Shown here: positions 2,476-63,674 of the stretch, one piece after another
Layout of the letters: every line of letters begins with the position of its first letter
Position numbering within the stretch: the first letter of the stretch is position 1
Notes under the pieces: model-generated
Seen by the model: only the letters and a program-made list of their open reading frames with translations
Told to the model about the DNA's origin: nothing
The model's database searches: none
Position numbers and translations under genes: made by a program
IMG/VR virus record: IMGVR_UViG_2802428818_000001
Location: 52,564-116,563 of that record
Reading direction: 5' to 3' (one strand)
From: a virus
Taxonomy: Duplodnaviria; Heunggongvirae; Uroviricota; Caudoviricetes
Length of the DNA: 64,000 bases

Positions 2476-2943
2476 TTAGAGGTTGTGGGCATCAATGAGA
2501 TTGAGAGCGCTCAGAGGAGCGCCGCAAAAGACGTCGAGGGCAATGGCTGCCTCGACAGCTTGAACCGCGTCAGCGCCCATCTGGATGGCGCCTAGCGCGT
2601 ATTTGCGGCCGGAGCCGATGGTGAATGTGTCACCGGTCAGCGGGCCGGCTGCGAAGTAGGCATCCGAGAACATGAAAACCTCGCCATCAGGCTTCACCAG
2701 GATAGCGGTGAGGCAAGGCTCGCCCGGCACCAGGTCGTCATCGCGAGACGCGCCGCGCTCGACCCACTTGCGGAACTCCTCGGCCAGGCCGACGACGTTC
2801 GTGGTGATGCCGAGCAGAGAGCCCGCGAACGGACCCTCCTTGATGCGATGGATCTTCTGCTTATTGCCGATCGGGTGCGTCGAGCCCGAATAGGCGCGGC
2901 TGTCGGCAGCCATGACGCCCTGATGGTAGACGACAACGCTCAC
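2476..2943 (-). CDS. HslV/proteasome-beta-like Ntn hydrolase
   Basis: MSVVVYHQGVMAADSRAYSGS...FAGSLLGITTN...IGSGRKYALGA resembles HslV TTIVSVRRNG...GFAGGTAD...IGSGG. Confidence 0.45.
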   Translation of the reverse strand: MSVVVYHQGVMAADSRAYSGSTHPIGNKQKIHRIKEGPFAGSLLGITTNVVGLAEEFRKWVERGASRDDDLVPGEPCLTAILVKPDGEVFMFSDAYFAAGPLTGDTFTIGSGRKYALGAIQMGADAVQAVEAAIALDVFCGAPLSALNLIDAHNL

Positions 2944-3281
2944 TGGCTGTCCTCGGGCAGGGCGATGCGCTGCGGCTGGAAGATGCCGCGGTTGATCAGC
3001 ATGAAGGCCACCTGCAGGTAGGTCATGCCGGTCGCGATGAAGCGCTGGTCGTATTTCTGCGGCCCGGCTGCCTTCAGCTCGTCGACCAGGCGCAGCACAC
3101 GCTCCTCGAGCTCCTTGGAGCGGTTGACCATGGCGACGTTCTCCTCGCTCTGGCTCTGGTAGCCCTTGACCGGCAGACCGGAATGCTTGCTTTCGAGCTT
3201 GGCCGCGGTGAACGTGCCGGCGAGCGGGATGCCTTCCAGCGGAAAGCCGAAAGGCGGGGAGGGGGCTTTGTCATCAGACAT
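2940..3281 (-). CDS. hypothetical protein
   Basis: AAGGAAAT SD before ATG; family A half-sites just upstream; coupled (ATGA) to downstream gene. Confidence 0.55.
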   Translation of the reverse strand: MSDDKAPSPPFGFPLEGIPLAGTFTAAKLESKHSGLPVKGYQSQSEENVAMVNRSKELEERVLRLVDELKAAGPQKYDQRFIATGMTYLQVAFMLINRGIFQPQRIALPEDSQ

Positions 3282-3292
3282 AGGGATTTCCT

Positions 3293-3319
3293 TATTTAGC
3301 GAAAGGGCGATTTAGCGAT
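3293..3319. promoter_or_regulatory. family A half-site direct repeats ATTTAGCGA x2
   Basis: upstream of 3281 gene SD. Confidence 0.5.
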
Positions 3320-4044
3320 CAATCGTCAATGCGATTGCCGACCGGGCCGTAGCGGAAGAGGCGGCTCTTGGTAGGGGTAAAGGGCAGTTCCCCGAGGAAG
3401 GGGTTCGAAACATTGGCGCCGAGCGCTTCAGCGACCGCATTGCGCACGAAGGTCGAAATATCCGTCGGCGCTTCGCCGTTGACGCTAATGTTGATCGTCG
3501 GCAGCACAGCCTCGCCGGCACGCTCACCGACAACGCTGTCAGGTTTAGCCTCGCCACCCGTCGCGAGATCACCCTGGCGCGTTGCCTCACAGAAGTCGCA
3601 GGCGCAGGCAGCCTGTTCGCTCTTGTTCGTCCAGTCTTCGGCCTTGTAGAGCGGGTTGATCAGCTCGACGTCCTCATCGTCGGCTTCCACCTCTTGCTGC
3701 TCTTCGCGTCCGACCTGACGACCCGCCTCGAAGGCTGCGTCGATCGATGCAGAGACCTTTTCGAGGTGCTCAGGGTAGGGGATGACGTTCGGCTCGACAT
3801 GCGTGACAGCAACGAGCTCGCCTTCACCCGTGGCAAACTCGTCCTGACGAAGCGTCAAAGCGGTCAGACGATAGGTGAGGCTGGTGCCCGCATCGTCCAC
3901 GATGGTGTGATTCTGTCCGATCCCAACGAGCTCATACGGATTGAGGTAGAAGTATGCGTGCAGCGGCGCAGAGACGAAATGCTTGGGCACGCCAGAGCCG
4001 CCCGCATAGAGGACTGCGCCGCTGGCTGGGAAATTGATCTTCAT
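3319..4044 (-). CDS. hypothetical protein
   Basis: 241-aa ORF with typical high-GC codon usage; family B motif upstream at about 4096-4118. Confidence 0.55.
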   Translation of the reverse strand: MKINFPASGAVLYAGGSGVPKHFVSAPLHAYFYLNPYELVGIGQNHTIVDDAGTSLTYRLTALTLRQDEFATGEGELVAVTHVEPNVIPYPEHLEKVSASIDAAFEAGRQVGREEQQEVEADDEDVELINPLYKAEDWTNKSEQAACACDFCEATRQGDLATGGEAKPDSVVGERAGEAVLPTINISVNGEAPTDISTFVRNAVAEALGANVSNPFLGELPFTPTKSRLFRYGPVGNRIDD

Positions 4045-4095
4045 GGAGATTGGATCCTCGAATGTTGGAATCTCAGGACATTATCCGGCTCGTAG

Positions 4096-4118
4096 CAGTC
4101 AGTCAATATTGATTGATC
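4096..4118. promoter_or_regulatory. family B CAGTCAGTCAATATTGATTGATC
   Basis: intergenic, upstream of 4044 gene (minus). Confidence 0.5.
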
Positions 4119-4454
4119 AAAATTGGGGATGGGTAGTCGGGAATTTGGGGATCTGGGCTCCGGGGCAGGGAAGCCGTGAGTTATAAGGTTTTGGCCGGAA
4201 GATTATAACCGACTACCCAGGTCAACATGTCCGTCCCGGTGAGGCACGAGGAGAGGTAGTCCAGGCCGGGATTTGCTCAGGCAGCAGGCGGCATCATGCC
4301 CAGCACACGCGAAAATCTCTAAGACTTCGATCGCTTCACAATTCAACACATGCACACTGACACGACGTTGCGCGAGGGATCGATCGAGCGTCTTTCGTGA
4401 GCAATGCAGCGCGCAAGCGTCTATGCGCTTGCATGAGCGTCTATGTGTCAATGC

Positions 4455-4476
4455 GAGTAAATCAGTATTGACTTAT
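4455..4476 (+). promoter_or_regulatory. family B variant GAGTAAATCAGTATTGACTTAT
   Basis: upstream of low-GC plus-strand unit. Confidence 0.4.
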
Positions 4477-4492
4477 ACATACATCAAAAATA

Positions 4493-4516
4493 ATTCGCGA
4501 TTTAGCGATTTAGCTA
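4493..4516. promoter_or_regulatory. family A ATTCGCGATTTAGCGATTTAGCTA
   Basis: about 80 nt upstream of 4596 gene. Confidence 0.5.
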
Positions 4517-4595
4517 TTGCATGACGTCGCGAACTAGTGTCTAAAGATCATGTCAACAACGACACTAGACAACAACACAGAAAGAGAGTTCTACA

Positions 4596-5162
4596 ATGAC
4601 TAAAGCAATCAACGCATACGCACTGTCTCTCTCTGCTCGCTACGATGCAGAGCTCAAGAATGAAAAGTCTGCAAACTCGTTAAACTTCATTTCGAAGTGC
4701 GCGCTTGTAGTATCGCAAGAGAAAGTCGCTGCAATGCTCGCAGCATGCGAAGTCAAGACTGACTTCGCACAAGACAGTGTGCAAGCAAATAGCGCGTTCT
4801 GCATGAAAGCACTTGAGAATTGCGCGCATATTCTTGAGTTCGCAGTTGACGCTCGCAACGTCGACAAATTGAAGTCGAACGTCGAAGAAACGCTTCGCAC
4901 TTTGATCAACTTCAAGAAGAACAATGAAGTCTTCAAAGCAAGCGACATTGAAATCGCGCTTGATAAAAACATCAAAGTCGCGAAAGAGCGCGCGCACTTG
5001 TATTATCGTCGTCGCGACGTGTTTTCTTCTGCAAAGCGTCATGCATCGATGAACATGCGCGCGCTTGTTGCTTTGAACATTCTCAAAGCAACGTCGAAAG
5101 ACTGCTACACAGTCAACGATAACGAGATTGTGCAGAAAATCGAAGCGCGTCTTAGCGCGTAA
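4596..5162 (+). CDS. hypothetical protein (low-GC island)
   Basis: 188-aa helical Ala/Lys/Glu-rich ORF in about 47% GC segment; opposite-strand ORFs there look spurious (Cys/Arg-rich). Confidence 0.5.
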   Translation: MTKAINAYALSLSARYDAELKNEKSANSLNFISKCALVVSQEKVAAMLAACEVKTDFAQDSVQANSAFCMKALENCAHILEFAVDARNVDKLKSNVEETLRTLINFKKNNEVFKASDIEIALDKNIKVAKERAHLYYRRRDVFSSAKRHASMNMRALVALNILKATSKDCYTVNDNEIVQKIEARLSA

Positions 5163-6067: not shown

Positions 6068-6100
6068 GTCTGAACTCCGTTCGTTGTTGACGCTTCTGAG

Positions 6101-6124
6101 TTTAGCGAAATAGCGATTTAGCGC
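6101..6124. promoter_or_regulatory. family A TTTAGCGAAATAGCGATTTAGCGC
   Basis: upstream of small membrane-protein gene (minus). Confidence 0.55.
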
Positions 6125-6157
6125 AATCTGGCATGACTGCGCTAAACACTGGCGATG

Positions 6158-6463: not shown

Positions 6464-6492
6464 GTGCGTGTCTTTCGTTTGCGTTGCTTACA

Positions 6493-6517
6493 TTTAGCAA
6501 TTTAGCGATTTCGCTAA
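6493..6517. promoter_or_regulatory. family A TTTAGCAATTTAGCGATTTCGCTAA
   Basis: upstream of 6463 gene (minus). Confidence 0.55.
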
Positions 6518-6960: not shown

Positions 6961-7220
6961 GAGAGTGAACCTTCCGTTCGTTGTTGACACTCAGACAGTC
7001 GCACGACGCAGCTAGGCGCTCACTCTGGCGCGACCTGGCGCACGACGGCGAGGTAAGGGTGAAGGCGCTGGCCGGAGCGGCACGCCATGGCAGTCCACGG
7101 CAGGCTATGGCGAAAAAGACCGTGGTTCCTGAAAGGATCATCCACGGTCGGTCCCTTGGACCCCACCGGTTCCCCAACTTTTATGTGCGGGTGCCTTGGT
7201 TCCCCATGGATCGGCCGTCA

Positions 7221-7259
7221 GCAAGCAAAAGAGGGTGGTGCATCCACTCACCACCCTCT
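7221..7259 (-). terminator. rho-independent terminator after 7289 gene
   Basis: AGAGGGTGGTG-N9-CACCACCCTCT 11-bp stem then TTTTGCTTGC on minus strand. Confidence 0.65.
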
Positions 7260-7288
7260 CCCCTCTGGCGCATATCTGTCCGGCGAGA

Positions 7289-8005
7289 TCAGACTGCCTT
7301 CAGAAGCTCCTTGAACGCGCCGGCCTGCTCTGTCGTGGCAAACACGTAGCTGGCAGCGCGCTTTGTGCCGACGTTCTTGATCAGGCCAAGTGCCTGCATC
7401 GCAGAGAGCGTCGACGATGCCTGGGTGCCGGCCGTGCCTTTGTCGACGTTGTGCCGGCGAAGCAGCTTCACGTTCGGATCCTGGCTGCGGATTTTATCAG
7501 AAGCGGCGCACATTGCCATTTCGCCGGTGAACGGCGCCTTGTGCTCCTCGAAGGTGAGCATCGACTTGCCGATCGCGACGTTGTGGGCGTTGGAGAGCTT
7601 CTGCTGCCCGGCGAGGAAGCGAACCAGGTCGACGAGCTTGTCGATGGCGTAGATGTTGAAGCGATCGCCGTCTTCTTCCTTCGTCTGGCGCGAGTTGATG
7701 AAGTCCGGGGTGATCTTCAGCGCCATCAGCACCTTGGCCATCGACGGCAGCGCCAGCTTCGCCCGGTAGCTGTTCAGCTTCTTCACCTTCGGCATGTCTG
7801 CGGTGTTGTTGGGCTTGCGGGTGATTTCGAACTGCACGCGGCTGTCGAAGGCAGCACCGATCGTCAGTGCAAACGCCTTGGCTGCGTCATCGTCGATCGC
7901 CTTCAGCGCATCAGCCAGTATGTAGGCGGCCTGGTTCTCGTTGGACTGCTGGCCGGCCGGTGCCTGGACGTTGTTGGTGGCCGGCGTGTTCTTGGACTTA
8001 CCCAT
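7289..8005 (-). CDS. hypothetical protein
   Basis: trimmed to MGKSKNTPATNN... with AAGGAGACAATCAC ATG; terminator hairpin downstream. Confidence 0.6.
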   Translation of the reverse strand: MGKSKNTPATNNVQAPAGQQSNENQAAYILADALKAIDDDAAKAFALTIGAAFDSRVQFEITRKPNNTADMPKVKKLNSYRAKLALPSMAKVLMALKITPDFINSRQTKEEDGDRFNIYAIDKLVDLVRFLAGQQKLSNAHNVAIGKSMLTFEEHKAPFTGEMAMCAASDKIRSQDPNVKLLRRHNVDKGTAGTQASSTLSAMQALGLIKNVGTKRAASYVFATTEQAGAFKELLKAV

Positions 8006-8129
8006 GTGATTGTCTCCTTCGTGTTGACGCTTGTCGAAAGTCGTTCGCTTTCGATGAACAGAAGATATGACAATCAATCGAGGCATAGAATCTGGCATGG
8101 GCAGGCGACGCACGGCACGAATCTTCACA

Positions 8130-9210
8130 CCGGAGTGCCATGGTCCTAGATAGAGGACACAATCCTGTCACGTTCCGTGCCGTCTCCCTTCAATATATAA
8201 AATACTTACTAACAGATAATAATTACATAGAAGGGACACGGCTCCGGATTGAAGCTCAGCTCCGGCGTGAGGATTTGTCCTCCTGCGGCTCCCAGCCATG
8301 GCAGACCGCGGCTGTCCAAGGATCTTCCGCTATTCCATGGCGCGCCTCACCTCACCATGGCGATCCATGGCTCCGGCGCTCGTGGTTCCTGGGATTTCGG
8401 AAAAGCCAAAAAGAAAGCCAGGCACGAAGACCCGGCTTTTGAAAATTAGACCGTCTCCACCGGTCACGCTGTATGCGATCAACAATCGATTGGATGATCA
8501 ATTGCTATGCTAGTGATTAGCACATTGTTCATAATAGAAGTTGCATCGCGGCGATCAAATGGCACGACCTGGCGCTATACACGGTGATTGGCGGATGGGT
8601 GGCTTCAGGCGGGGATTGAAGAGGAGGAGAAGGCGTGGCGCCGGCCACCGTCTGTCTCTTTGGTTTTCCATCTACACTGTCTATCTCCACACACGCGCTC
8701 TCTATCACGCACCTACACGCATAGCCTCTCTCTAGCTCTATACGAGGCCATGGTCTGTCTTATGGTGTTCTCTAGGTGATGGTGCTCTCTATGGGCCGGT
8801 GTGTGCTTCTATGCGTGTTGGTGTTCGATTGTCTTTTAAGCGTTGCGTGGCCGAGCGTTTAGCTTGTGCATTGGCTTAGCGTCTTGTGTTCGCATATCTG
8901 CTCTAGAGCGCGCTTTGTGAAGTTCTTCGCTGTCGATGATCGTTCTGTCTGACGGATTCGTTCTGTGAGCTTCTATGAGCGTTTCCAGAGTTGCGTTCTG
9001 CTGGCCTGGGTTATGTTGACAGAAAGGAAAATTCGAAATTGGGGAGATTTTTGTCAACGTAGCGTTAAGTTACGTCAACATGGAATCCTTAAATAGATGG
9101 TGGTTAGACAAAATGGGGCTTTTGGCTGTCAACATGCGTCAACATGGATGAGCCTATTTCCGGGTGCCTGATTTACACTGGACCGGTGCCTGTCAACATC
9201 GGGACCATGG
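8130..9210. repeat. 1.1-kb repeat-rich non-coding region (candidate origin/pac)
   Basis: AT-rich 45-bp core flanked by imperfect IR, CTCTAT repeats, six GTCAACAT(G) iterons at 9030-9200, CCATGG clusters. Confidence 0.5.
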
Positions 9211-9211
9211 C

Positions 9212-9601
9212 TCAGAGGATATACTTGAGCTCATCCAAGGCTCGCTTGGTAGCCTCTTCTATGGTGACGGGCTCTCGCTGCTTGAAGTCCTTATTCACTT
9301 CATGGGTCAGCCCATCGCCGACGACGTAGCTAAATATGACGAGGAAGTCCATGAGGTGAAACGGGTATCGGCGTGCTCTGATGAAGAAGAGCCGGGCGCT
9401 GCTCTTGGGCGTGGGAATCTGGTAGCGCACCTCGTATCTGCCCTTGAGGAGCTGCACGGTGGCAACGTTTGCCTCTATCTGGCGCAGTTCCTCTATGCCG
9501 GCTTTCACTTCCGGGGTGGTCTGCAGATAACGCTCTTCAAAGCGTTTCGGCCATGTGTCGAGATTGATGAGCTCCTCGAGGTAGGCGTTCCAGTCGGTCA
9601 T
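9212..9601 (-). CDS. hypothetical protein (downstream member of two-gene cassette)
   Basis: 129 aa, 4-nt gap after upstream 76-aa gene; no recognisable motif. Confidence 0.5.
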   Translation of the reverse strand: MTDWNAYLEELINLDTWPKRFEERYLQTTPEVKAGIEELRQIEANVATVQLLKGRYEVRYQIPTPKSSARLFFIRARRYPFHLMDFLVIFSYVVGDGLTHEVNKDFKQREPVTIEEATKRALDELKYIL

Positions 9602-9604
9602 CGC

Positions 9605-9835
9605 CTAGTGCCGTGCCATGGAGCATTGCTCTATAGAGAGCGTGACCAGGCGGTTCTCTTCCTCTGCGGCCAGGCGTGCGAAGGCGAGCTCCTGGAAGGC
9701 CTGGGCTGCCTCGGTCCTGTTCCAGCCGTATTGTTCGGCGAGCAGTAAGACCTGGTCGAAGGTGCTCTCGAGGGCTTGCTGGCAGTCAAGGTCGCGGTCG
9801 GCATAGGGTGCGAGCTGCTTGGGGCTGGTGAGCAT
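9605..9835 (-). CDS. hypothetical small acidic protein
   Basis: GGAAGAGGAACGGACC ATG strong SD. Confidence 0.55.
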   Translation of the reverse strand: MLTSPKQLAPYADRDLDCQQALESTFDQVLLLAEQYGWNRTEAAQAFQELAFARLAAEEENRLVTLSIEQCSMARH

Positions 9836-30196: not shown

Positions 30197-31705
30197 TCAG
30201 CCGTTGGGCTTCAGGCCGTGCTTGTCGAAGAGCTTCTTCAAGGTCTTGCGGCAGATGTGCAGCTCAGCCTCGATCGCGCGGTTAGACTTGCCTTCGCTGT
30301 GCAGCTTCAGTGCAGCCGCATGTTTTTCAGGGATTGCGCCTGGCGCTTTGACGACAGTGCCGACAGGAAGCTGCTTAGGCGCGTCCTTCTTCAGCTTCTT
30401 AGCCTTGACGAGCTGCGGCACCTTCACCTTGACCGAGACGCTATCGGGAGCCGCCGAGGCAGTGATCGCAGCGCTCATGTCGCCAGTCTTCGCAGCTTCA
30501 TCCACGCGCTTGCGAAGATCCTTGATCGAAACCTCAACCACAGCTTCAGCAGGTGCGACCGGCCGATCATCGAGCGCTTTTGCTACACCCGAGGTGCCGA
30601 CTGCAGCACGCGGCAGCTTTCTCGCACCTTCGACCGGCGTAACAGTGACGCTTCCGCCCTTCGCTGCACCGATGTTGACGACCTCGAGAATGGGCGTGTG
30701 ATTGCCCTTGATGACGTCAGCCAGGAGCTTCGACGCTTTTTCGTTGCCAGTCATCGGCCGGTTCTGCCGAAGCGTCGGGTGGACGTCTGCGGGGAGAACA
30801 GCGACGATGTGATAGCCTTTCGCACGCATCTTGTTCGGCTCACCTGGCGGGACCGCAATGACGTCTTCCGGCGCGACCTTAACCAGGGTGATGATGTTGC
30901 CACGGAAGCCGCTCAGATAGCCGCGACGTGCAATGTGCAAGCCGGTCGAGCATTCATTGCGCCGGTTCGGATCGACCAGCTTCTCGTCCATCTGCACGAA
31001 AGAGCCGAGCTTCTGCGTCACCTTGCCTGAGTGGCAATCGACAAAGCCGTTTTGCGCGCTGTTCAGAACCTTATATGCAACGATCGAGCCGTCATCAGCG
31101 ATCGGCAGGTCGCCGTTGCGCATGAAGTTGAGCAGCTCCTTGACCGTATGCGATCGGTGATCGATCACGGTCGCGATGCGCTCCATGAACTTCTGGAAGC
31201 CAGCAGCATCTTCGCCGTTGTTGATCGCATCCATGTAAGGCGTGAGGGCCTCGACGCCCGGAATGACCTTGTTGTTGACGACGGCATGCAGTTCTTCCGG
31301 CTCGTAAGCGATCGCCGGTCCCTTCTCTTGCGGCACGAAACGCTGCGTCGGCGATTGTGTCTGGACCGACGCAGCGGGAGCAGCCGACGGCTTCACAACG
31401 CCAAGCACGACAGTCGTCATCTTCGGCTCTTCAACCGTGCCACCGAACATCGCCTTGAGTTGCGAGAACCGGCCACGAACGAACTTGACGACGCCGTTGG
31501 TCTTTTCCTCGATCGTCTTCTCAATGGAGAAGGTAGCGGTGTCGATTTCGAGGTGTTCGCCGCGATTCAAGGCTTCGATCGTCTGATCGAGGATCTCCTT
31601 TGTGCGCTGCGTGTCTTTCGGCAAATTCATTTCCGAGCCGTCTTCGAGATAAAGCGTGACACCGGAATTAGATGCGATCGCTCCGAGAATGCGGACCTTG
31701 CTCAT
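30197..31705 (-). CDS. protein with C-terminal sigma-region-4/LuxR-type HTH (rIIB-like position)
   Basis: C-terminus KSNRAIEAELHICRKTLKKLFDKHGL; ATGA-coupled downstream of GHKL ATPase gene. Confidence 0.5.
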   Translation of the reverse strand: MSKVRILGAIASNSGVTLYLEDGSEMNLPKDTQRTKEILDQTIEALNRGEHLEIDTATFSIEKTIEEKTNGVVKFVRGRFSQLKAMFGGTVEEPKMTTVVLGVVKPSAAPAASVQTQSPTQRFVPQEKGPAIAYEPEELHAVVNNKVIPGVEALTPYMDAINNGEDAAGFQKFMERIATVIDHRSHTVKELLNFMRNGDLPIADDGSIVAYKVLNSAQNGFVDCHSGKVTQKLGSFVQMDEKLVDPNRRNECSTGLHIARRGYLSGFRGNIITLVKVAPEDVIAVPPGEPNKMRAKGYHIVAVLPADVHPTLRQNRPMTGNEKASKLLADVIKGNHTPILEVVNIGAAKGGSVTVTPVEGARKLPRAAVGTSGVAKALDDRPVAPAEAVVEVSIKDLRKRVDEAAKTGDMSAAITASAAPDSVSVKVKVPQLVKAKKLKKDAPKQLPVGTVVKAPGAIPEKHAAALKLHSEGKSNRAIEAELHICRKTLKKLFDKHGLKPNG

Positions 31706-35474: not shown

Positions 35475-35497
35475 GAGTGGCTCCTTAAAACAAAAAG

Positions 35498-35527
35498 AGT
35501 AGTCAATCAATGTTTATTGACTACTCT
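35498..35527 (-). promoter_or_regulatory. family B embedded in 11-bp-stem hairpin GAGTAGTCAAT-N8-ATTGACTACTC
   Basis: hairpin followed on minus strand by TTTTTGTTTT then AAGGAG ATG. Confidence 0.6.
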
Positions 35528-35556
35528 TAGCGAAGAAAATCGTGGGATGCTACTGA

Positions 35557-55018: not shown

Positions 55019-58000
55019 TCAGTCGAGGAGATCGACGACTGACGCGAAGACTTCCTCCATGAGATCCTGCTTCTCGGGCGCGTAGTAGATTTCGCCAGGA
55101 TTGAAGCCGATCACGAGGTTCGCATCGAGATCCTTGTGATAGACAACCTTGCCGGCGACGTCCGAGGTCTTGCCCTTGAAGTCAGGCATGAAGTGGCGCA
55201 CGGCAGCAGTGCCGAGCAGCACGATGATCGGTGGCTTCAGGATATCGATTTCGCGCTCGAGGTAGGGCCAATACATGCGGATCTCTTCCGGCGAGACCTG
55301 CTTGCCCGACTTCGGCCGCTTCAGCAGAGCCGTCCAATAGATCATCTTGCGATCGAGCTGGTGCGACATCAACGCATCGATGACAGGCGCCGACGCCTTG
55401 CCGATCGACATCATGCCTTCCTGCTCTTCCGGGTTGTTGGGCGCGTCCGTGATGATCATGAACTGCGCTTGCTTGCCGAAGTGCGGATGCACCATGATAC
55501 CGTCCTCAGACAGATCCGCCTTGTAGTCGTCGATGACCTCGGCGATGGCGTCCTTCGTCGCCTTGTCGTTCTCCATCGAGCGCGCGACCGGCACGGTTGC
55601 TGTGACCAGGCCAGGCAGGAGCTCGAGCTGATCCTTGATGCGCGCCGGATCGTTCGGCCCAAGCTGTCCAGGCTCGATGCGTGAGAATGCGCCGACGAGA
55701 TCGAGGTTTTCCTGGTGCTTCTTATTGCACTTGGTCTTGTTGACGCGCTCGAGGAAGTCAGCCTTGTCCTTGAAGAGGCCCAGCGGCTTCTTCGTGGTGG
55801 GATCGACCGCCTTGCGCGCCTCGAGGATCGCGTTCGTCGTGTTGGAAGAAATGCCCTTGATGCGCTGGAACGGCATGACCAGCCGGACGTCGGTGACAAT
55901 CTCGAACCTTTCGGTCGAAATGTTGATATCGGGCATGTTCACGTCGATGCCGAAGCGCGCAGCGTCACGCAAGATCGCCGGCAGCTTGTCTTCGTCCATC
56001 AGTGTCAGCGCAGCCGCGAAGAACTCGACGGGATAATGCGTCTTCAGCCACATCGACTGCCACGAGATCAGCGAATACTCGACCGAGTGGCTCTTGTTGA
56101 AGCCGTAGCCGGCGAAGCCTTCGATCTTGTCGAATAGAGCGCCGGCCCATTCGTCCGTGCAGGCGATCGTCTTCACGCAGCCGTCAACGAAATTCGACCG
56201 CTCCTTCTTCATTTCCTCGGGCAATTTCTTGCCCATGATCTTGCGGAGCTTGTCAGCTTGGGCGCCGGTGTAGCCTGCGATCACCTGAGAGATCTTCATG
56301 ACCTGCTCCTGGTAGACGATGACGCCGTATGTTTCGCGCAGCACGTCTTCCATCAGCGGATGGTCATAGTCGACCGTCTCGTTGCCCTGCTTGCGCAGAT
56401 AGTAGCTGTCCATCATGCCTGACTCCATCGGGCCAGGTCTGTAGAGCGCGGTCGCGGCCGTGATATCGTCAAAGGTGATGCAGCCGTCAGCGCCGAGCTC
56501 GCGCAGCAGCTTGCGCATGCCGGGGCTTTCGAACTGGAAGACGCCAGTGGTGAGACCGGCTGCGAAGTTCTTCAGCACTGCCGGATCGTCGAGCGGCACC
56601 TTCATCAGGTTGATCTTCTTTTGATGGCGCTCGAAAATGTAGCGCAGCACCAACGCGATCAGATCGAGAGTGGAGAGGCCGAGAATATCCATTTTGACCA
56701 GGCCTTGATCCTCGACGATGCGCTTATCCCAGCAGACGACTGCCGAGTCGCCCTTGCGCTTTTCGATGACCGCTCGCTCCTCGAGATCCACGCCACCGAC
56801 GACGATGCCGGCTGCGTGCTGGCTCATATTGCGGATCGTCCCTTCGATGCGCTCCATGATGTCCCAGTGCGCCGGATACTTGGCTGCGAACTCATCGATT
56901 TCAGCGACTTCCATGCGGCATTCAGGCAGCGGCACATTGGCGCCGTGCTTCTTGGGCACCAGCTTGGAGATCGAATATTCCTTCTCCGGGATCTGGAAAG
57001 TTCGGCCGACGTCGCGGATCGAGGACGCAGCAGCAAGCGTGCCGAAGTTCGACACGCCGGCGACGCGCTTCTCGCCGTATTTCTTGATAAGGTATTCGAC
57101 GACCTCGTGGCGACGCGTCGACATGAAGTCCAAGTCGGCGTCTGGCAGGTCGAGACGCTCCGGGTTGATGAAGCGCTCGAAGAGCAGACCGAAGCGGATC
57201 GGATCGCAGTCAGTGATGCCCATCAGATAAGCGACGAGCGAGCCGCCGACAGAACCGCGGCCAGGACCGACGAGAATGCCGCTCTGCTTGGAGAACTGCA
57301 CCACGTCCTGCACAAGCAGGAAGTAGCCTGCGAAGGAGAGCTTCTTCAAAACCTCGAGCTCGTATGCCAGGCGCGGCTTGTAGACGTCGATCAACTCTTG
57401 CTGGGTCGGCTTGTGCCCGAAGCTTTCCTGGCTGAAACGGACCTTCCAGCCGGCCTTGCACTCTGCGACGAGACTGGCGAACTCGTCTTCTGCCATCACC
57501 GGCAGCGAGACCGGCGCCTTCGACCAGGTGTATTCGACCGCATCGACCAGCCAGTCGGTGTTTGCGAGGCCTTGCTTGAAATGCGCGCCTGCACCGACGA
57601 CGCCGCGGAGCGCGACGTGCTTTGCAGCCTTGACCACTTCAGCGCCGAGATCGGCTGCCTTCAGAACGTGGAAGTCGCGGTTGAAGGTCGATTTGTGCCA
57701 ACCGTCCGTCACCTTGTTGTTATTGGCGATCGCGGTCATGACTTCGTGCGCGTCAGCCTGGTCGGCTTCGTAATAGGCAGGGCGCACGACGAGCGGGCGA
57801 GCCTTGAAGCGTGCGATCAGATCCAGCGAGCGCTTATTGACCGTGCCGAAGTAGGGCGTGTCGATCGGGATCAGCGGCGCGAAGACGTAATCGGGATGCA
57901 GGCAGTCAACCAGGCGCTCGAGGATCTGCTCTGCGTCAGCGCGCATGATGACGCCGTGGGTGTCGCCCAGGTGAAACGCAAGATGACCGGCGCCGAGCTT

Positions 58001-58432
58001 TTCGAGCTCTTCCCAGAGATCGTCATAGCCAAGCTTCGCGGTGTAATAGAAGCGCCCAGGCACCTTGTTACCGGCCGCGTCTTCGGTGTCGCCGGAATTG
58101 GCCTTGGTCAGCAGACGATAGATCGCCTTCATGCCTGTTTCCGTCAGCACGTAAGCCGTGAGGAAGTGCTCGGGCGGCATGTGCTTCTTCTTCTGACCCT
58201 TGGCCGGACGCCAGGTCGGATCCTCAGACAGTCTGAGCCGCACACCGATGATCGGCTTAACCTCGGCCTTCTTGGCGCGATTGGTGAAGTCGATCATGCC
58301 GGTGATCGACATGGTGTCGGTGATCGCGATCGCCTTGGCGCCTTGCTCTTTGGCGATATCGACCAGCTTCTCGGCGTTGAGAATGCTTTCGCCGAGTGAG
58401 AAGTCGGTGCGGGCGGCTAGAATGGCGTGCAA
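55019..58432 (-). CDS. dnaE: DNA polymerase III alpha subunit
   Basis: 1137 aa; N-terminal PHP domain, palm/fingers region characteristic of DnaE. Confidence 0.95.
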   Translation of the reverse strand: MHAILAARTDFSLGESILNAEKLVDIAKEQGAKAIAITDTMSITGMIDFTNRAKKAEVKPIIGVRLRLSEDPTWRPAKGQKKKHMPPEHFLTAYVLTETGMKAIYRLLTKANSGDTEDAAGNKVPGRFYYTAKLGYDDLWEELEKLGAGHLAFHLGDTHGVIMRADAEQILERLVDCLHPDYVFAPLIPIDTPYFGTVNKRSLDLIARFKARPLVVRPAYYEADQADAHEVMTAIANNNKVTDGWHKSTFNRDFHVLKAADLGAEVVKAAKHVALRGVVGAGAHFKQGLANTDWLVDAVEYTWSKAPVSLPVMAEDEFASLVAECKAGWKVRFSQESFGHKPTQQELIDVYKPRLAYELEVLKKLSFAGYFLLVQDVVQFSKQSGILVGPGRGSVGGSLVAYLMGITDCDPIRFGLLFERFINPERLDLPDADLDFMSTRRHEVVEYLIKKYGEKRVAGVSNFGTLAAASSIRDVGRTFQIPEKEYSISKLVPKKHGANVPLPECRMEVAEIDEFAAKYPAHWDIMERIEGTIRNMSQHAAGIVVGGVDLEERAVIEKRKGDSAVVCWDKRIVEDQGLVKMDILGLSTLDLIALVLRYIFERHQKKINLMKVPLDDPAVLKNFAAGLTTGVFQFESPGMRKLLRELGADGCITFDDITAATALYRPGPMESGMMDSYYLRKQGNETVDYDHPLMEDVLRETYGVIVYQEQVMKISQVIAGYTGAQADKLRKIMGKKLPEEMKKERSNFVDGCVKTIACTDEWAGALFDKIEGFAGYGFNKSHSVEYSLISWQSMWLKTHYPVEFFAAALTLMDEDKLPAILRDAARFGIDVNMPDINISTERFEIVTDVRLVMPFQRIKGISSNTTNAILEARKAVDPTTKKPLGLFKDKADFLERVNKTKCNKKHQENLDLVGAFSRIEPGQLGPNDPARIKDQLELLPGLVTATVPVARSMENDKATKDAIAEVIDDYKADLSEDGIMVHPHFGKQAQFMIITDAPNNPEEQEGMMSIGKASAPVIDALMSHQLDRKMIYWTALLKRPKSGKQVSPEEIRMYWPYLEREIDILKPPIIVLLGTAAVRHFMPDFKGKTSDVAGKVVYHKDLDANLVIGFNPGEIYYAPEKQDLMEEVFASVVDLLD

Positions 58433-59194: not shown

Positions 59195-59832
59195 GCGGCG
59201 TTCCTTTGGACCTTCTCGGAGAGCTTGCGCAGCTCGGCGAGGATCTTCGTGCGTTCCGGGCGATCAGCGTCCATCAGACGGAACACAAACGCCGTCGTGA
59301 TCTGGCTGATCAGAATGTTTTGCGCTCCGATCTCTTTGGCCCAATCGGAGCGCGCTTTCAGTTGGCGCATCTGTTCAAGCAACTCGGGCGGCTGCTCGTA
59401 GAGGAGCTTCAGAAACAGCGAGGCGCGGGCGCTCAGCTTCCTCAGCGCCCAGGCGAGGTGCGTCTCTTCAGCCAGCTTGTCTTCGGCGCTGTCATCGCCA
59501 GATGCGATGATGTCGAGGAGCGAACCTTCGGAGCTGTCGTCGCCATTCATTGCGATCGGGGCGTCGAGGCTCTTGGCGCGCTCTTCGGCAATCCGCTTGA
59601 ACATCGTGCGGTTAAGGCCAAGCTTCGAGCGACGGATGCCCTCGAGCAGATAGGCCTTGAAGGGCACGCCGAGCGTCGGATCGAATGTGTCGCGTGCGCG
59701 GCACCAGACGATCCAAAGCTCTTGCTCGACGTCTTCATGGCTCATCGACGTTGCGCCGGAGCCATGAAGCTTTCTTGCGATCGACCAAGCGAGACGCCGG
59801 ATCAGATCGACGCTCTCCTTATGGTCGATCAT
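59191..59832 (-). CDS. sigma-70-family (ECF-sized) sigma factor
   Basis: region 2 pattern DLIRRLAWSIARK...ELWIVWCRARDTFDP and C-terminal region-4-like HTH. Confidence 0.65.
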   Translation of the reverse strand: MIDHKESVDLIRRLAWSIARKLHGSGATSMSHEDVEQELWIVWCRARDTFDPTLGVPFKAYLLEGIRRSKLGLNRTMFKRIAEERAKSLDAPIAMNGDDSSEGSLLDIIASGDDSAEDKLAEETHLAWALRKLSARASLFLKLLYEQPPELLEQMRQLKARSDWAKEIGAQNILISQITTAFVFRLMDADRPERTKILAELRKLSEKVQRNAA

Positions 59833-61091
59833 CAGGCGAAGTGCCTCTGAAGCACTTGTTCGACTGTCACCTGGTCGACGCGGGAGCAGCGGTTGGCGAA
59901 TGCGAGCTTGAAGCCGAGCGTCGGGTTATTGCCGAAGACGATGGTCAGCGATGCAGCGGTGATCAGCTCACGCGGCGAGATCGTCATCGACATTTCGCCC
60001 TTCGCGAAGCTCTCGCGAATGGCGTTCGCGACCTTGACGAACTTGTCAGCATCGGGCTTGCCGAGACCGGCCTTCGACCGCAGGACCAGAGCTTCCTGCT
60101 TCGGGTCCATGTATTTCACTTCCTCAGTGATGTGGAAGCGCGAATAGGACGCAGCATTCTGGATCATCGTGCCTTGGTAGAGGCCAGTCTCGTCGCCGAC
60201 GCCGTTGGTGTTACCGGTCGCGACGAAGCGAAAATCGGGATGCGGATGAATGACGCGCTGATCGATGGGCGCATCCTTGATGACAAGCGGCTTGCCTTCG
60301 AGCACCGGCTGATAGAGCGCGATCACGGACGGCATTGCGAAGTCGTATTCGTCAGCGCAGTAGACCATGCCGTATTTCATCGCCATCGCCAGCGGACCAT
60401 ATTGGAACTCGGTCACAGTCTGCGGCTTCTGCACGATGTGGATTCTGCCGTCGGCGCCGAGCTCCTGGCTGTCAGCCATCACCGTCTTGACTACATACTG
60501 TCCGAGAATGTGCGCCTCTTCGGTGTTGCCGGTGTGCTGGACGCGCAAGAACGCGCGGCCCGTGCGCGCGGCGCACTGCTCGAGGACAGTCGTCTTGCCA
60601 GTGCCGTGAAAGCCCCAGAGATAGACGTTCATGCCGAGTTCGAAGCCCAGGCAGACTTTCTTCACCAGGTCGATGTTGAAGACGTAGTCCGGATCGGTCG
60701 CCTGGATATAGGCAGCGGACTCGAGGTGATGTTCGGTGAGGCAGCGCAGCATGATCGGATTGTTGGTCGAGCTCAAGCCGGCCGACGCGTCGAGGCCGAA
60801 GATCTCCGACAGCGTCCGTTCGGTGAAAGCGAACGGCTGGTTCGGCTGCAAGGCGGTGGACGACTTCTTGCGCTGCTCGGCAGCTTCCCTGGCCTTTAGA
60901 GCGGCGCGCTTGCCGGTTTCGGACAGCATCGGCTGGCCCGGATACTTTTCCTTGTATTGCTCGATCGTCCATTCCGGATAGTTCTCGCGCAAATAGACGC
61001 GGATCGAGTGGCAACGACCACCGTCGATCGCGCAGGTAATCATGTCGTCGGTGGGGTCGGCTTGCACTGCTACGGCTGCTGCTGCTGTCAT
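59832..61091 (-). CDS. CobS-like AAA+ ATPase (AAA_5)
   Basis: Walker A GFHGTGKTT; GGAGACAGGAA ATG; trimmed from 59832..61133. Confidence 0.75.
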   Translation of the reverse strand: MTAAAAVAVQADPTDDMITCAIDGGRCHSIRVYLRENYPEWTIEQYKEKYPGQPMLSETGKRAALKAREAAEQRKKSSTALQPNQPFAFTERTLSEIFGLDASAGLSSTNNPIMLRCLTEHHLESAAYIQATDPDYVFNIDLVKKVCLGFELGMNVYLWGFHGTGKTTVLEQCAARTGRAFLRVQHTGNTEEAHILGQYVVKTVMADSQELGADGRIHIVQKPQTVTEFQYGPLAMAMKYGMVYCADEYDFAMPSVIALYQPVLEGKPLVIKDAPIDQRVIHPHPDFRFVATGNTNGVGDETGLYQGTMIQNAASYSRFHITEEVKYMDPKQEALVLRSKAGLGKPDADKFVKVANAIRESFAKGEMSMTISPRELITAASLTIVFGNNPTLGFKLAFANRCSRVDQVTVEQVLQRHFA

Positions 61092-61128
61092 TTCCTGTCT
61101 CCGTTTAATCTCGCGTTCTAGTGACGCT

Positions 61129-61190
61129 CTCAATCAATATTTACTTACTAACAAGCGCAGCGATGGGACGCAATCAATATTTACTTACCG
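61129..61190 (-). promoter_or_regulatory. two tandem extended family B boxes (TCAATCAATATTTACTTACTAACAAGCGCAGCGATGGGACG / CAATCAATATTTACTTACC)
   Basis: upstream of CobS-like gene; first box nearly identical to 39029-39068. Confidence 0.6.
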
Positions 61191-61205: not shown

Positions 61206-63674
61206 CTATTTCATGAGGATCTTTTTCAACTCACCCATGACGGCCTTCGGCAGCTCATCGACGGAGTTGAGGATCAGGTAGTTGTCGTAGAAGCGAGCCA
61301 CGGCCGAGGACTCGATGCCGATACCGACGAGATCGAAGCCCATCTTCGTCAGGCGCTCGACCATGTATTTCAGGTGTTCATCGTCACCGTCGGCGCCAGC
61401 GGGGAAGCCGTCGGAGAGCACGATGATCACCTTGCGCTTTTCCTTGCGCTTGGCGAGACGCATCGCAGCATATTCGAGGGACTCGCCGTCGATGTTGCCG
61501 CCCATGAATGGCTGAAACTTACGCTGATAGGCAAAGCGCTTCTTCACCTCGGCATTGATGCGCTCGTGGAACTCTTTGAAGATCGGCATGTAGATCGGAT
61601 ACACACGCGAGAACTTCACGCGGCTCTTGTTGACCTCGTTCTGAAGGTCGGCATTGAACTGGCGAATACGCGCTGCATTCAGCGGACCATCATCGCCATA
61701 CATCTGCGCCGTCGTGAAGCCCATGCACTCGGCAGGAATGTTGCAGCGCTCGAGAACCTGGGCGAGCGCATAAGAGGCAGACATTGCCGTCGCCATCGGC
61801 TTCTTCGACATCGAGCCGGAGCAGTCGGACAGCAGCGCAACGGCTGTGTCTTTGGCGCGGATCTCTTCGCGGCGCGAGAACACGCGGGGATCGCCAGCCG
61901 TCAGACGATGCAGGCCGGAGCTGTTGAGCCTGCCAGAGCGCTGCCCGGCGACGTTGAAGACGCGCGACTGCGCAGCCATCATGCGCTCGATGTCCTTCTG
62001 CATGACGCCAGTCAGTGCGCGGGTCTGCTCGTCGAGCTCCACGATGTGCTTGCTGTCGAAATTCTCCGGCACGTCCAGCGTCTTGATCACATCGTATTCA
62101 CGGGTGAAGACCGAATAGTCGGCCGCCCGGCACGCTTCGATCGCCTCCTTGACGATGATCTTGACCAGCGCCGACGAGAGATCCTTCTCCTCGAGCGCGT
62201 CGTCGTTCATTTCGGAGAAGGGGTTCTGGTTCGGATCGTAGCCGATACCTGCGACCTCGAGATCGTTCTCGCCGTCTTCGCCTTCACCGTCGGTGTCACC
62301 ATCGTCGTCGTGATCGCCGGTGTCTTCGATGGCGACGTTGCTCAGATCCGGTGAGCCGTTGGCTTCTTCGCCTTCCTGGCTCTCATCATCGGGATCAGAG
62401 CTTCCAGCGTCGCCGTTGCTTTCATCATCCCCTGCCTGATCAGGCTCGCCGCTTTCATCGGCGCTGTCTTCCATCTCAGCGGGCTCACCTTCACCCTCTG
62501 CATCAGAATTCTCTGCTTCCTGCCCAGCGTCAGCAGGCTCACCATCACTCGTGTCGCCTTCGTCCTGGTCATCGTCGTTGCCGTCGCCGGCACCATTCTG
62601 ATCATCGGCATCGTCAGCCGCGCCTTCTTGATCGTCCGCTTCGTCGGAGCCTTTTCCGTCAGCGTCACCGGCATCTTCTTCGCCAGCCTGATCGTCGTCG
62701 CTGCCATCTGCGCTTTCTCCGGCAGTGTCATCGTCGTCGCCATTGTTCTCATCGTCGGCTTTTTCTTCGCCTTCGCCGGAACCTTCGTTTTCACCGTCGC
62801 CGGCATCTTCTTCCTTCTCCTCTTCGTCAGACTCGCCTTCACCGCCCGAAGCGTTGTCGTTGTCTTCGGTGTGCTCGCGCTCACCGTCGCCTTCGCCGTC
62901 ACCGGTCTGTTCTTCGTCGGAGTGATCCTTGTCGTCTTCGCCGTCGGACTCTTCCTGATCGTCAGAGCCTTCACCCTGGCTGTCGTCTTCGTCCTGTTCT
63001 TCAGGCTCGGGCTGCGGCGGGGCAGGGGGCGGTGGTGGATAGAGGATGGCCTCGACCTCGAGCGCGATCTCGTAGGTCTCTTCGGTGGACGCGAGCAGCG
63101 GCATCTTCTTCTGCGACGCCTTGCTGAAGCGCTTCATGAACTCCTTGACCAGCTCATGATCCCAGTAGTTGTTGTCGTCCATGAACTCCTGGAACTCGGC
63201 GTGGCCGGCAAGCGCGCGCATCAAGACGACGAGGAGGTAATCGAACTCGTCCTGCTTCGACTGCGCCTTCGCGATCGCAACGGCCGTGACGTTCTGCAGG
63301 AAGTATTTGCCGAGGCGCGAAATGTTCTTCTTCGAGCCGGGAAACTCATTGCCCATCAGGCGCTCAATCATCGTGTCCTCGACGATGTTGTGCAGATTAT
63401 GCAGGCGGCGCGACTTCTCGTGAGCCTTGTAGAGGAAGTCGGTGAAGAGGACGTGGGCGACTTCGTGGTCGATAAAGCCCTGGATCGCGAAAACGAAGTC
63501 CGGCTCTGCGTTGTCGGGCAAGAGCGGAATGTTGACGCGGTAGGGAAGGCCGGTGACGGGGTGCGGCTGAACATAGGCTTGTGTGCCCATTTGCGTAACG
63601 GTCAAGCCTTTGCCTGCAAGCATCGGAATGATCTTCTTGATCGCTTCGCGAAGGATCACAATGTCGTTGTTCAT
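61206..63674 (-). CDS. CobT-like VWA-domain protein with giant acidic low-complexity region
   Basis: MIDAS DCSGSMS near C-terminus; about 250 aa of D/E/G/S repeats. Confidence 0.7.
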   Translation of the reverse strand: MNNDIVILREAIKKIIPMLAGKGLTVTQMGTQAYVQPHPVTGLPYRVNIPLLPDNAEPDFVFAIQGFIDHEVAHVLFTDFLYKAHEKSRRLHNLHNIVEDTMIERLMGNEFPGSKKNISRLGKYFLQNVTAVAIAKAQSKQDEFDYLLVVLMRALAGHAEFQEFMDDNNYWDHELVKEFMKRFSKASQKKMPLLASTEETYEIALEVEAILYPPPPPAPPQPEPEEQDEDDSQGEGSDDQEESDGEDDKDHSDEEQTGDGEGDGEREHTEDNDNASGGEGESDEEEKEEDAGDGENEGSGEGEEKADDENNGDDDDTAGESADGSDDDQAGEEDAGDADGKGSDEADDQEGAADDADDQNGAGDGNDDDQDEGDTSDGEPADAGQEAENSDAEGEGEPAEMEDSADESGEPDQAGDDESNGDAGSSDPDDESQEGEEANGSPDLSNVAIEDTGDHDDDGDTDGEGEDGENDLEVAGIGYDPNQNPFSEMNDDALEEKDLSSALVKIIVKEAIEACRAADYSVFTREYDVIKTLDVPENFDSKHIVELDEQTRALTGVMQKDIERMMAAQSRVFNVAGQRSGRLNSSGLHRLTAGDPRVFSRREEIRAKDTAVALLSDCSGSMSKKPMATAMSASYALAQVLERCNIPAECMGFTTAQMYGDDGPLNAARIRQFNADLQNEVNKSRVKFSRVYPIYMPIFKEFHERINAEVKKRFAYQRKFQPFMGGNIDGESLEYAAMRLAKRKEKRKVIIVLSDGFPAGADGDDEHLKYMVERLTKMGFDLVGIGIESSAVARFYDNYLILNSVDELPKAVMGELKKILMK

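Follow-up and report, generated by a model that had tools for sequence, protein, structure and literature searches.

The 64,000-nucleotide (nt) stretch analysed here (the window; positions 52,564 to 116,563 of IMG/VR record IMGVR_UViG_2802428818_000001) contains a gene-free block at 8006-9211, for which a first-pass annotation had proposed either a replication origin or a packaging/regulatory hub. We conclude that this block is probably a composite transcriptional and post-transcriptional control region on the minus strand of an RHEph10/pLM21S1-type plasmid-prophage. Within the block lies a covariation-supported RNA of ~120 nt that is previously undescribed and absent from Rfam. The window comes from a Rhizobium azibense contig of 116.5 kb and, judged by its sequence relationships, the element is a ~116-kb Rhizobium plasmid-prophage of the RHEph10/pLM21S1 type. 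Its relatives are the ~115-kb Rhizobium siphoviruses RHEph10, RHph_Y2_11 (Y2_11), RHph_N1_10 and RHph_N1_15, together with a 115.6-kb "plasmid" of Pararhizobium qamdonense (Pqam p5). Published descriptions class the RHEph10-type group and pLM21S1 as prophages of plasmid-like character that replicate by a RepC-type system and carry a partition module (PMC4447125; PMC7969092); in the window, a type Ib ParA/ParG pair is encoded at 1271-2190. Literature searches returned nothing on the regulation of such elements.

The claim that the block holds no credible open reading frame (ORF) was upheld: no conserved ORF was found in 8006-9211, between the minus-strand genes 7289-8005 and 9212-9601, and the gap between these same two genes measures 1.2-1.4 kb in all 14 relatives, including a megaplasmid of Agrobacterium vitis. 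Membership in the phage group was checked for the 14 studied loci; alignments comprised 14-18 homologs, with the block read on the minus strand (the direction of the flanking genes). Most box and segment counts refer to 13 homologs, with L115 as the most divergent for the box cluster described below and L197 as the divergent genome for the dyad arms. Nucleotide identity of the block to the window is 49-62% by alignment and 65-71% by blastn. A hidden protein gene was rejected as an explanation, since the ORFs annotated in the gap—172 amino acids (aa) in Y2_11, 168 aa in L117 and 172 aa on the opposite strand in L121—differ in frame or strand. No tRNA, tmRNA or known RNA family was found in the block. 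Nearly every gene to the right of ~6.1 kb lies on the minus strand, so that the block sits within a long array of genes with the same direction.

The structured RNA and its surroundings comprise the following features:

8531-8558, minus strand: predicted sigma-70-like promoter, TTGATC-16-TATTAT (consensus scan)
8404-8524, minus strand: candidate RNA of ~120 nt, with three hairpins, a single-stranded core and a terminator
8524-8506, minus strand: hairpin Ha of the candidate RNA
8505-8482, minus strand: hairpin Hb of the candidate RNA
8484-8465, minus strand: single-stranded core UGUUGAUCGCAUACAGCGUG, highly conserved
8465-8449, minus strand: hairpin Hc of the candidate RNA
8439-8414, minus strand: intrinsic terminator stem, a GC-rich hairpin with tail CUUUUUGG and a U-tract to ~8404

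RNAalifold assigned 34 pairs to the candidate RNA, 16 of them with compensatory changes. Over 31 pairs, 91.3% of the cells were paired, against 82.0 +/- 0.9% in shuffled controls, and 16 of the 31 pairs covaried, against 7.0 +/- 1.5 in shuffles; in both comparisons, none of 500 shuffles reached the observed value, and controls in which the structure was slid gave 37-53% paired. G-U pairs account for 76 of the 427 cells, and pairing falls from 91.3% on the minus strand to 76.6% on the plus strand; hence, the RNA is read from the minus strand. The terminator is kept in 15 homologs, with both G-U and compensatory pairs. A covariance model of the RNA detects a single copy in each genome, always at the orthologous site, and none in ~160 other loci. 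Further family members were sought with a 16-mer probe of genome contigs (chance matches only), with 19-mer probes of metagenome and viral contigs (69 new loci, 0 passing the covariance model) and with a protein-anchored metagenome scan, which found none. The whole window, searched against Rfam release 15 at the gathering threshold, gave no match, and the sole Rfam match with E < 1 in 7950-9300 was a spurious one of 17.5 bits to a eukaryotic long non-coding RNA. At the position of the predicted promoter, which is conserved in the alignment, relatives carry TTCGCA/TTGCGA-16-CTATCT. The terminator (8439-8414, minus strand) and the structured RNA (8524-8405), along with a CCNNGG array at 8296-8370, had been overlooked in the first-pass annotation.

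The ~120-nt RNA is a candidate small RNA, or else the 3' domain of a longer transcript. It resembles trans-acting small RNAs of bacteria or phages that end in a Rho-independent terminator (Hfq-type architecture) in its length, its promoter-like site, its three covarying hairpins, its conserved single-stranded stretch and its GC-rich terminator with a U-tract. It differs from them in having neither an Rfam family nor a target found within the phage, and in being preceded by a length-conserved, U-poor stretch of ~460 nt that is probably co-transcribed. As a separate observation, a 13-nt perfect complement to the RNA core (AUGCGAUCAACAA vs UUGUUGAUCGCAU) occurs at 31218-31230 on the minus strand, in an rIIB-like gene (30197-31705), where ~0.03 would be expected.

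Upstream of this RNA, at the right-hand end of the block, lies a cluster of short repeats, read as iterons in the first-pass annotation and flanked by two small genes:

9013-9199, minus strand: putative promoter/operator module with five ATGTTGAC(A/G) boxes and one inverted GTCAACAT
9199-9190, 9145-9136, 9135-9126, 9081-9072 and 9060-9053, minus strand: ATGTTGAC(A/G) boxes, containing a TTGACA-type -35 hexamer
9113-9095, minus strand: conserved element TTTTGTCTAA..CCATCT, part of the module
9020-9013, minus strand: inverted box GTCAACAT, predicted transcription start of a leftward RNA
9212-9601, minus strand: gene for a 129-aa product, no matches
9605-9835, minus strand: gene for a 76-aa product, an acidic two-helix hairpin that co-occurs with the TGTTGAC module in pRL10

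The two-gene cassette that had been reported at 9212-9835 is thus present as 129-aa and 76-aa ORFs on the minus strand. Of the "at least six direct copies" of the repeat, the clustering and enrichment stood up to analysis, but the copies are five direct GTCAAC[AG]T (9053, 9074, 9128, 9138 and 9192) plus one inverted (9013). In the window as a whole, GTCAACAT has 12 matches against 1.45 expected, five of which fall within 9013-9199. The supposed iterons are 9-bp TGTTGAC boxes in both orientations that match the sigma-70 -35 hexamer. Their number, orientation and spacing (21/38/54) are kept in 12 of the 13 scanned homologs, the boxes being degenerate in L115. Their arrangement varies: the window has them as tandem direct repeats, and Pqam and A. 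vitis show a perfect palindrome at this position. The cluster of the most divergent genome has decayed to TTGACA/TTTACA—still good -35 hexamers, with the pairing to GUCAAC lost. Within the block, GTTGAC/GTCAAC hexamers are limited to this cluster (6-8 copies) plus one that precedes the ATG of the next gene downstream by ~23-24 nt; that gene encodes a winged-helix protein, and this single GTCAACA copy is present in all 13 homologs, L115 included.

In 10 of the 13 homologs, the alignment can be read as a last TTGACA, 17-18 nt, a -10-like hexamer (A as its second and T as its sixth base), 9-10 nt and then GTCAACAT. Moreover, homology to plasmid pRL10 of R. ruizarguesonis spans the whole cluster and ends exactly past the last GTCAACAT, with unrelated sequence beyond; consequently, the box cluster behaves as a self-contained, promoter-like module. 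pRL10 also carries a homolog of the upstream 76-aa gene nearby. The 76-aa protein, an acidic two-helix hairpin that lacks a DNA-binding fold, is an unlikely candidate for a box-binding repressor. At other places in the window, G(C/T)GTCAACAACGA precedes start codons by 23-28 nt (those at ~6066, 6957, 8005, 11812 and 18636) and the plus-strand gene at 4596 by 47 nt, typically 6-9 nt past a -10-like hexamer. From the portability in pRL10, the GTCAACA copies near start codons and the -10-like spacing, we infer that the boxes constitute a portable compound promoter/operator, in which TGTTGAC would act as a -35 element (possibly also as an operator) and GTCAACA as a start or leader box; the leftward transcription start is predicted at GTCAACAT, 9020-9013. 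Of the recurrences reported for a second non-coding block, that of GTCAACATG was recovered, at 4221, and that of GCGTCTATG was not borne out, the latter being absent from the block under study and present in the window only at 4417 and 4438. This second block, at 4045-4595, shares only GTCAACA boxes (4221 and 4552) with the first; it is a divergent promoter region between 3319-4044 (minus strand) and 4596-5162 (plus strand), and has the lowest GC content of the window.

A comparison can be drawn with the operators of the P1 C1 repressor, which number 22 asymmetric 17-bp sites across the P1 genome (PMC8546580). In this genome too, many sites close to promoters carry one asymmetric motif, G(C/T)GTCAACAACGA / TGTTGAC, in one orientation or the other, and a single locus holds multiple copies of it. 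The motif sequence is unrelated, however, and the fixed distance of 23-28 nt to start codons also fits a +1 or leader element.

Between the boxes and the structured RNA lies a stretch of unusual composition:

8560-9012, minus strand: U-poor stretch of ~460 nt, probably transcribed, no conserved fold

Along the minus strand, its first ~230 nt are A/C-rich (A 0.37, C 0.30, G 0.20, T 0.10), followed by ~120 purine-rich nt and then by a C-rich part; TAGA, AGAG and GTGT motifs are enriched. The "about six CTCTAT repeats" reported here were only partly recovered: exact CTCTAT occurs three times on the plus strand of the block and is unenriched (23 in the window against 15 expected), whereas the looser YTCTAK is enriched, with 8 of the 22 plus-strand matches in the window falling within 8700-8971. 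A comparison segment, 8440-9000, measures 542-564 nt in 13 homologs despite 49-62% identity over the block, and its composition is nearly identical among them. RNAalifold found only 4 pairs in the ~460 nt, and Rfam gave no match in the stretch. The idea that the entire 616-nt transcript is a structured RNA was rejected for its 5' part: z-scores were only -1.5 and -1.7 on the two strands, and no consensus structure was obtained for the 5' 460 nt. The U-poor stretch possibly serves as a Rho-loading or protein-binding leader.

Past the terminator, the block contains an AT-rich element bounded by inverted repeats, a phased array and a short conserved motif:

8383-8392, minus strand: CCAGGAACCA, nearly invariant in the alignments, directly past the terminator
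8296-8370, unstranded: CCNNGG array with 10-bp phasing, often as the 8-mer TCCRYGGA, 4-7 units per homolog
8179-8242, unstranded: dyad element, CCGTCTCCCTTC, AT-rich core of ~38 bp, GAAGGGAGACGG

The AT-rich core with flanking inverted repeats had been described correctly: the arms lie at 8179-8197 and 8224-8242, and the core (8189-8233, 82% AT) is the AT-richest 45-mer of the 64-kb window. The inverted repeat is 12 bp long (half-sites of 12-18 bp), with compensatory arm changes in several homologs, and a -10-like TATATT/TATAAT hexamer abuts its right arm. The complete genome of Y2_11 has exactly two dyad copies, which are its two AT-richest 45-mers; the second precedes the leading gene of the terminase/structural operon by ~55 nt, and a second copy upstream of the terminase operon was also found in Pqam p5 and L197. 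In Y2_11 and Pqam, both copies have the arms CCGTCTCCCTTC / GAAGGGAGAYGG (..TCCCTTC / GAAGGGA..), and in the divergent L197—the only variant genome checked—both have ..TCAGTCA / TGACTGA... Because the arm variants are common to both copies within a genome, the dyad would be recognised by a trans-acting protein: the concerted change of the four half-sites likely points to a genome-encoded, sequence-specific protein and not to a hairpin as such. We accordingly read the dyad as a putative regulated promoter with flanking protein-binding half-sites. Dyad-symmetric activator sites are known from phage late promoters, namely the Ogr/Delta-dependent promoters of P2/P4 and the C-dependent promoters of Mu. 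Like these, the dyad has inverted half-sites at packaging/structural and regulator promoters, and its half-sites co-evolve with the genome; unlike them, the half-sites flank an AT-rich core and lie 38-45 bp apart rather than upstream of a -35 element, and the arms could extrude as a hairpin.

In the CCNNGG array, the CC..GG columns are invariant at period 10 in the alignment, and the window contains a single three-unit run with this phasing, 0.00 being expected. No such array accompanies the second copy of the dyad element. RNA helices were rejected, with no consistent partners and no covariation, and the array most likely acts at the DNA level, binding or wrapping a protein. Nor does it qualify as a par centromere, as the ParG-type 8-bp boxes lie elsewhere and the array has a period of 10 bp: a test for a type Ib ParA-ParG centromere found 8-bp-period boxes (TAGNGATT) at 1233-1264 upstream of parA, at 4497-4518 and at 6492-6511, and none in the block. 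For CCAGGAACCA and GCGTCAAC, a promoter of the extracytoplasmic function (ECF) sigma type was discarded, the spacings misfitting GGAAC-N16-17-CGTC. Two further observations concern the block as a whole. CCATGG is enriched in it (7 of the 24 sites in the window), and a perfect 10-nt inverted repeat, GCCATGGTCC / GGACCATGGC, brackets it at 8137-8146 and 9202-9211; relatives show no clear conservation of this repeat.

The left-hand end of the block leads into the winged-helix gene and its leader:

8008-8171, minus strand: leader of the winged-helix gene, conserved in the alignments
8171-8155, minus strand: invariant GTGACAGGATTGTGTCC in the leader
~8107-8090, minus strand: GCCTGCCCATGCCAGAT in the leader
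8054-8034, minus strand: hairpin TCGAAAG-N7-CTTTCGA in the leader
8028-8022, minus strand: GTCAACA box, 23 nt upstream of the winged-helix ATG
7289-8005, minus strand: gene for the winged-helix protein (238 aa), the DNA-binding domain of which is C-terminal

Within GTGACAGGATTGTGTCC, GAUUGUGUCC is complementary at 9 of 10 positions to the Shine-Dalgarno region GGAGACAAUC (8017-8008), and an anti-Shine-Dalgarno pairing of GAUUGUGUCC with GGAGACAAUC is predicted; both sides are nearly invariant, which places this pairing beyond the reach of covariation. The 238-aa protein resembles generic regulators and not Rep or initiator folds. It is a candidate binder of the dyad arms, and may regulate both its own gene and the late operon.

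The "regulatory hub" half of the first-pass proposal is supported by what the block contains, i.e., promoter-like boxes, a terminator, a covariation-supported RNA and a dyad element upstream of the winged-helix gene. In the model that we favor, the TGTTGAC module—with -35-like elements that possibly double as operators—would fire leftward from the inverted box GTCAACAT at 9020-9013, while several other phage genes would have the GTCAACA(ACGA) box at their 5' end or in their leader. The transcript would then pass through the ~460 nt of length-conserved, U-poor RNA with no conserved fold before reaching the ~120-nt structured RNA, which may also be produced as a separate small RNA through its own promoter-like site and/or by processing; the terminator would insulate the downstream genes. 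A second, regulated promoter is proposed to lie in the AT-richest 45 bp, its half-sites bound by a phage protein that is most likely the winged-helix protein encoded downstream. The CCNNGG array would precede this second promoter and, with the dyad also heading the terminase/structural operon, expression of the winged-helix protein would be coupled to that of the late genes.

Several points weigh against this model. The promoters are consensus-level calls, and the consensus scan returned 3 sites where 3.0 are expected by chance. The kept length and composition of the U-poor 460 nt are unaccounted for. A search inside the phage for a conserved target of the RNA core found none, and the 13-nt complement in the rIIB-like gene is not conserved in Y2_11. 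Gene conversion between the dyad copies could mimic the concerted arm change. Lastly, inverted sites around the AT-richest DNA, together with a phased array and a gene for a DNA-binding protein, would also fit a viral origin core.

One alternative overlaps with the composite control region and specifies an RNA mechanism for it, namely RNA immunity of the P1 c4 / P4 CI type, which we regard as possible but unlikely. Here, the structured RNA, once processed out of the long leader, or else the AUGUUGAC repeats of that leader would anneal to GUCAACA boxes at the ribosome-binding sites of early genes, the winged-helix gene among them, and control lysis-lysogeny by blocking translation or by Rho-dependent termination on the C-rich, unstructured leader. 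This proposal draws on the direct and inverted motif copies in a transcribed, untranslated region upstream of a regulator with a complementary box at its ribosome-binding site, on a conserved core that begins with UGUUGAU (complementary to GUCAACA) and on a leader that is unstructured, has more C than G and is rut-like. The P1 plasmid prophage, furthermore, uses a trans-acting c4 RNA processed from a longer transcript (PMC8546580). Yet the complementarity is limited to a 6-8-nt core (GUUGAC/GUCAAC) with flanks that do not covary (e.g., ACGUUGAC vs GUCAACAU), and the TTGACA/TTTACA boxes of the most divergent genome keep their -35 quality while losing the GUCAAC pairing. There is likewise no Rfam match, including to any C4 antisense RNA model in the release, and no conserved intragenomic target for the core. 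With P1/P7 immI (c4) and P4 CI, the block has in common a plasmid prophage as its setting, untranslated repeats upstream of a regulator gene and an RNA that could be processed; it differs in showing no sequence or covariance-model similarity, and in that its repeats behave better as -35 and +1 promoter elements.

Another reading of the same transcript, to which we assign a low probability, is that the ~460-nt U-poor RNA and the ~120-nt 3' domain form one long regulatory RNA of an undescribed kind.

An origin for lytic replication is an improbable explanation as well. In this case, the dyad-flanked core at 8179-8242 would act in DNA unwinding, with inverted initiator sites on either side, the CCNNGG array would load a winged-helix initiator, the purine-rich upstream RNA would activate or prime initiation and the second dyad copy would serve as a second origin. 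Inverted initiator sites bracket an unwinding element in oriS of herpes simplex virus (HSV) and in the core origin of simian virus 40 (SV40), and R-loops at T4 oriF and oriG activate or prime initiation. Consistent with such a function are the standing of the core as the AT-richest 45-mer of the window (and of both copies as the two AT-richest in Y2_11), the covarying arms common to both copies, which imply a dedicated DNA-binding protein, and a phased array that is unique in the window. The phage also encodes a DnaB-like helicase, primase, Pol III alpha, single-stranded DNA-binding protein (SSB), a UvsW-like helicase and RecA; the set found in the window comprises Pol III alpha, ribonucleotide reductase, RecA, SbcCD-like proteins and RtcB, plus a sigma factor. 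With a replication set of its own, the phage needs a mechanism of lytic initiation. The placement of the dyad argues for a promoter instead, as each copy precedes an operon, 55-180 nt before its first gene, in sense orientation and with a -10-like hexamer at the arm. Besides, the winged-helix protein is like generic regulators and not Rep or initiator proteins, the second copy has no CCNNGG array and the block contains neither DnaA boxes (no TTATCCACA-like site with <=1 mismatch in 8006-9211) nor an inflection of GC skew. In the complete relative Y2_11, cumulative GC skew is monotonic, tracks the nearly one-directional transcription and gives no indication of where an origin lies. No CtrA box was found in the window.

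A packaging site (cos/pac) recognised by terminase at the dyad, or a T5-like injection-stop region, is very unlikely. The T5 injection-stop region is repeat-rich and non-coding, the RHEph10-type family encodes a T5 A1-like protein, and the second dyad copy directly precedes a small ORF and the gene for the large terminase subunit, a common location of cos sites. Against this, the block copy is ~15 kb away from the terminase genes, and the genome would be cut if it had two cos sites at this spacing; the linear RHEph10 record ends ~19 kb from the block; and the remainder of the block is without any packaging link.

Replication of these elements points away from the block. RepC-type oriV lies inside repC and is A+T-rich and iteron-free (PMC3155836). 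In Y2_11, repC (61511-62614) and the block (6985-8136) are ~55 kb apart, and the repC of the family adjoins CobT, just past the right end of the window. The block is found in the same host family as repABC-type origins, and its phage-plasmid group carries a RepC module (PMC4447125), but its distance of ~55 kb from repC sets it apart from an oriV located within that gene. The iteron-type theta origin proposed in the first-pass annotation, in which a Rep protein bound to the GTCAACAT repeats would melt the AT-rich core, deserves next to no weight and the origin reading of the block is not supported: the repeats are clustered and enriched, are spaced near helical-turn multiples (10/20-21/54/64 bp) and do have an AT-rich core in the block, yet they are 9-bp boxes in both orientations with an arrangement that varies between homologs rather than 17-22-bp direct iterons, they lie ~800 bp from the core with the RNA element and the terminator in between, the core is duplicated beside promoters, the module is a portable one with its boundary at GTCAACAT in pRL10, DnaA boxes are absent from the block and the family replicates via RepC (PMC4447125) from an iteron-free oriV inside repC (PMC3155836).

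Several other features of the window were recorded. The 8-bp-period boxes TAG(N)GATT / GCGATTTA directly upstream of parA (1233-1264) have the layout of a ParG-type operator/centromere, and such boxes recur in the second non-coding block (4497-4518) and upstream of two small minus-strand genes (~6100-6125 and 6492-6511); this could reflect control of several promoters by a ribbon-helix-helix (RHH) protein (ParG or a relative) or a split centromere. At 35485-35529, between minus-strand genes, an AT-rich, perfect 13-bp inverted repeat (AAGAGTAGTCAAT-N8-ATTGACTACTCTT) contains GTCAAT/ATTGAC and could be a bidirectional terminator or an operator. The minus-strand ORF at 2940-3281 contains the Acb2/Tad1 hairpin domain (Pfam E = 2.8e-13) and may thus encode an anti-CBASS or anti-Thoeris sponge; relatives likewise keep it near the block. 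Also on the minus strand, 55019-58432 encodes a DnaE-type Pol III alpha fused to a C-terminal uracil-DNA-glycosylase domain, and 59832-61133 encodes a CobS-like AAA protein with an N-terminal Ros/MucR-like domain (E = 8e-5, below the Pfam cut-off).

The block was additionally observed whole—with RNA, terminator and dyad element intact—on large conjugative Agrobacterium plasmids, namely L006 (A. vitis pAvCG78b, 264.0-265.4 kb) and P0019, where a winged-helix gene truncated to 143 aa, a Doc toxin and an IS30 element adjoin it; the block thus persists outside the phage context. Elements of the RHEph10/pLM21S1 type appear to be common: the window's ParA has 622 relatives at E <= 1e-40, distributed over hundreds of contigs, many of them of 110-120 kb, in Rhizobium, Ensifer, Mesorhizobium, Phyllobacterium, Ancylobacter and Aureimonas. 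If the ParA-linked contigs of 110-120 kb represent the same kind of element, the plasmid-prophage group would be far larger than the literature suggests.

For this group, the block offers an RNA family absent from Rfam, with its covariance model, a putative class of promoters with a GTCAACA start box, a portable multi-box module and a dyad that would link a winged-helix regulator to the packaging operon. It also cautions against reading "repeats plus an AT-rich patch" as a phage origin, as the repeats are promoter-like in this case and the patch is duplicated beside promoters. Should the ~460-nt and ~120-nt parts act as one long RNA, it might serve as a sponge for proteins or as a timer coupled to transcription and dependent on Rho; in a large and little-studied group of alphaproteobacterial plasmid prophages, it would set a lysis-lysogeny or early-late switch together with the dyad-binding winged-helix protein.

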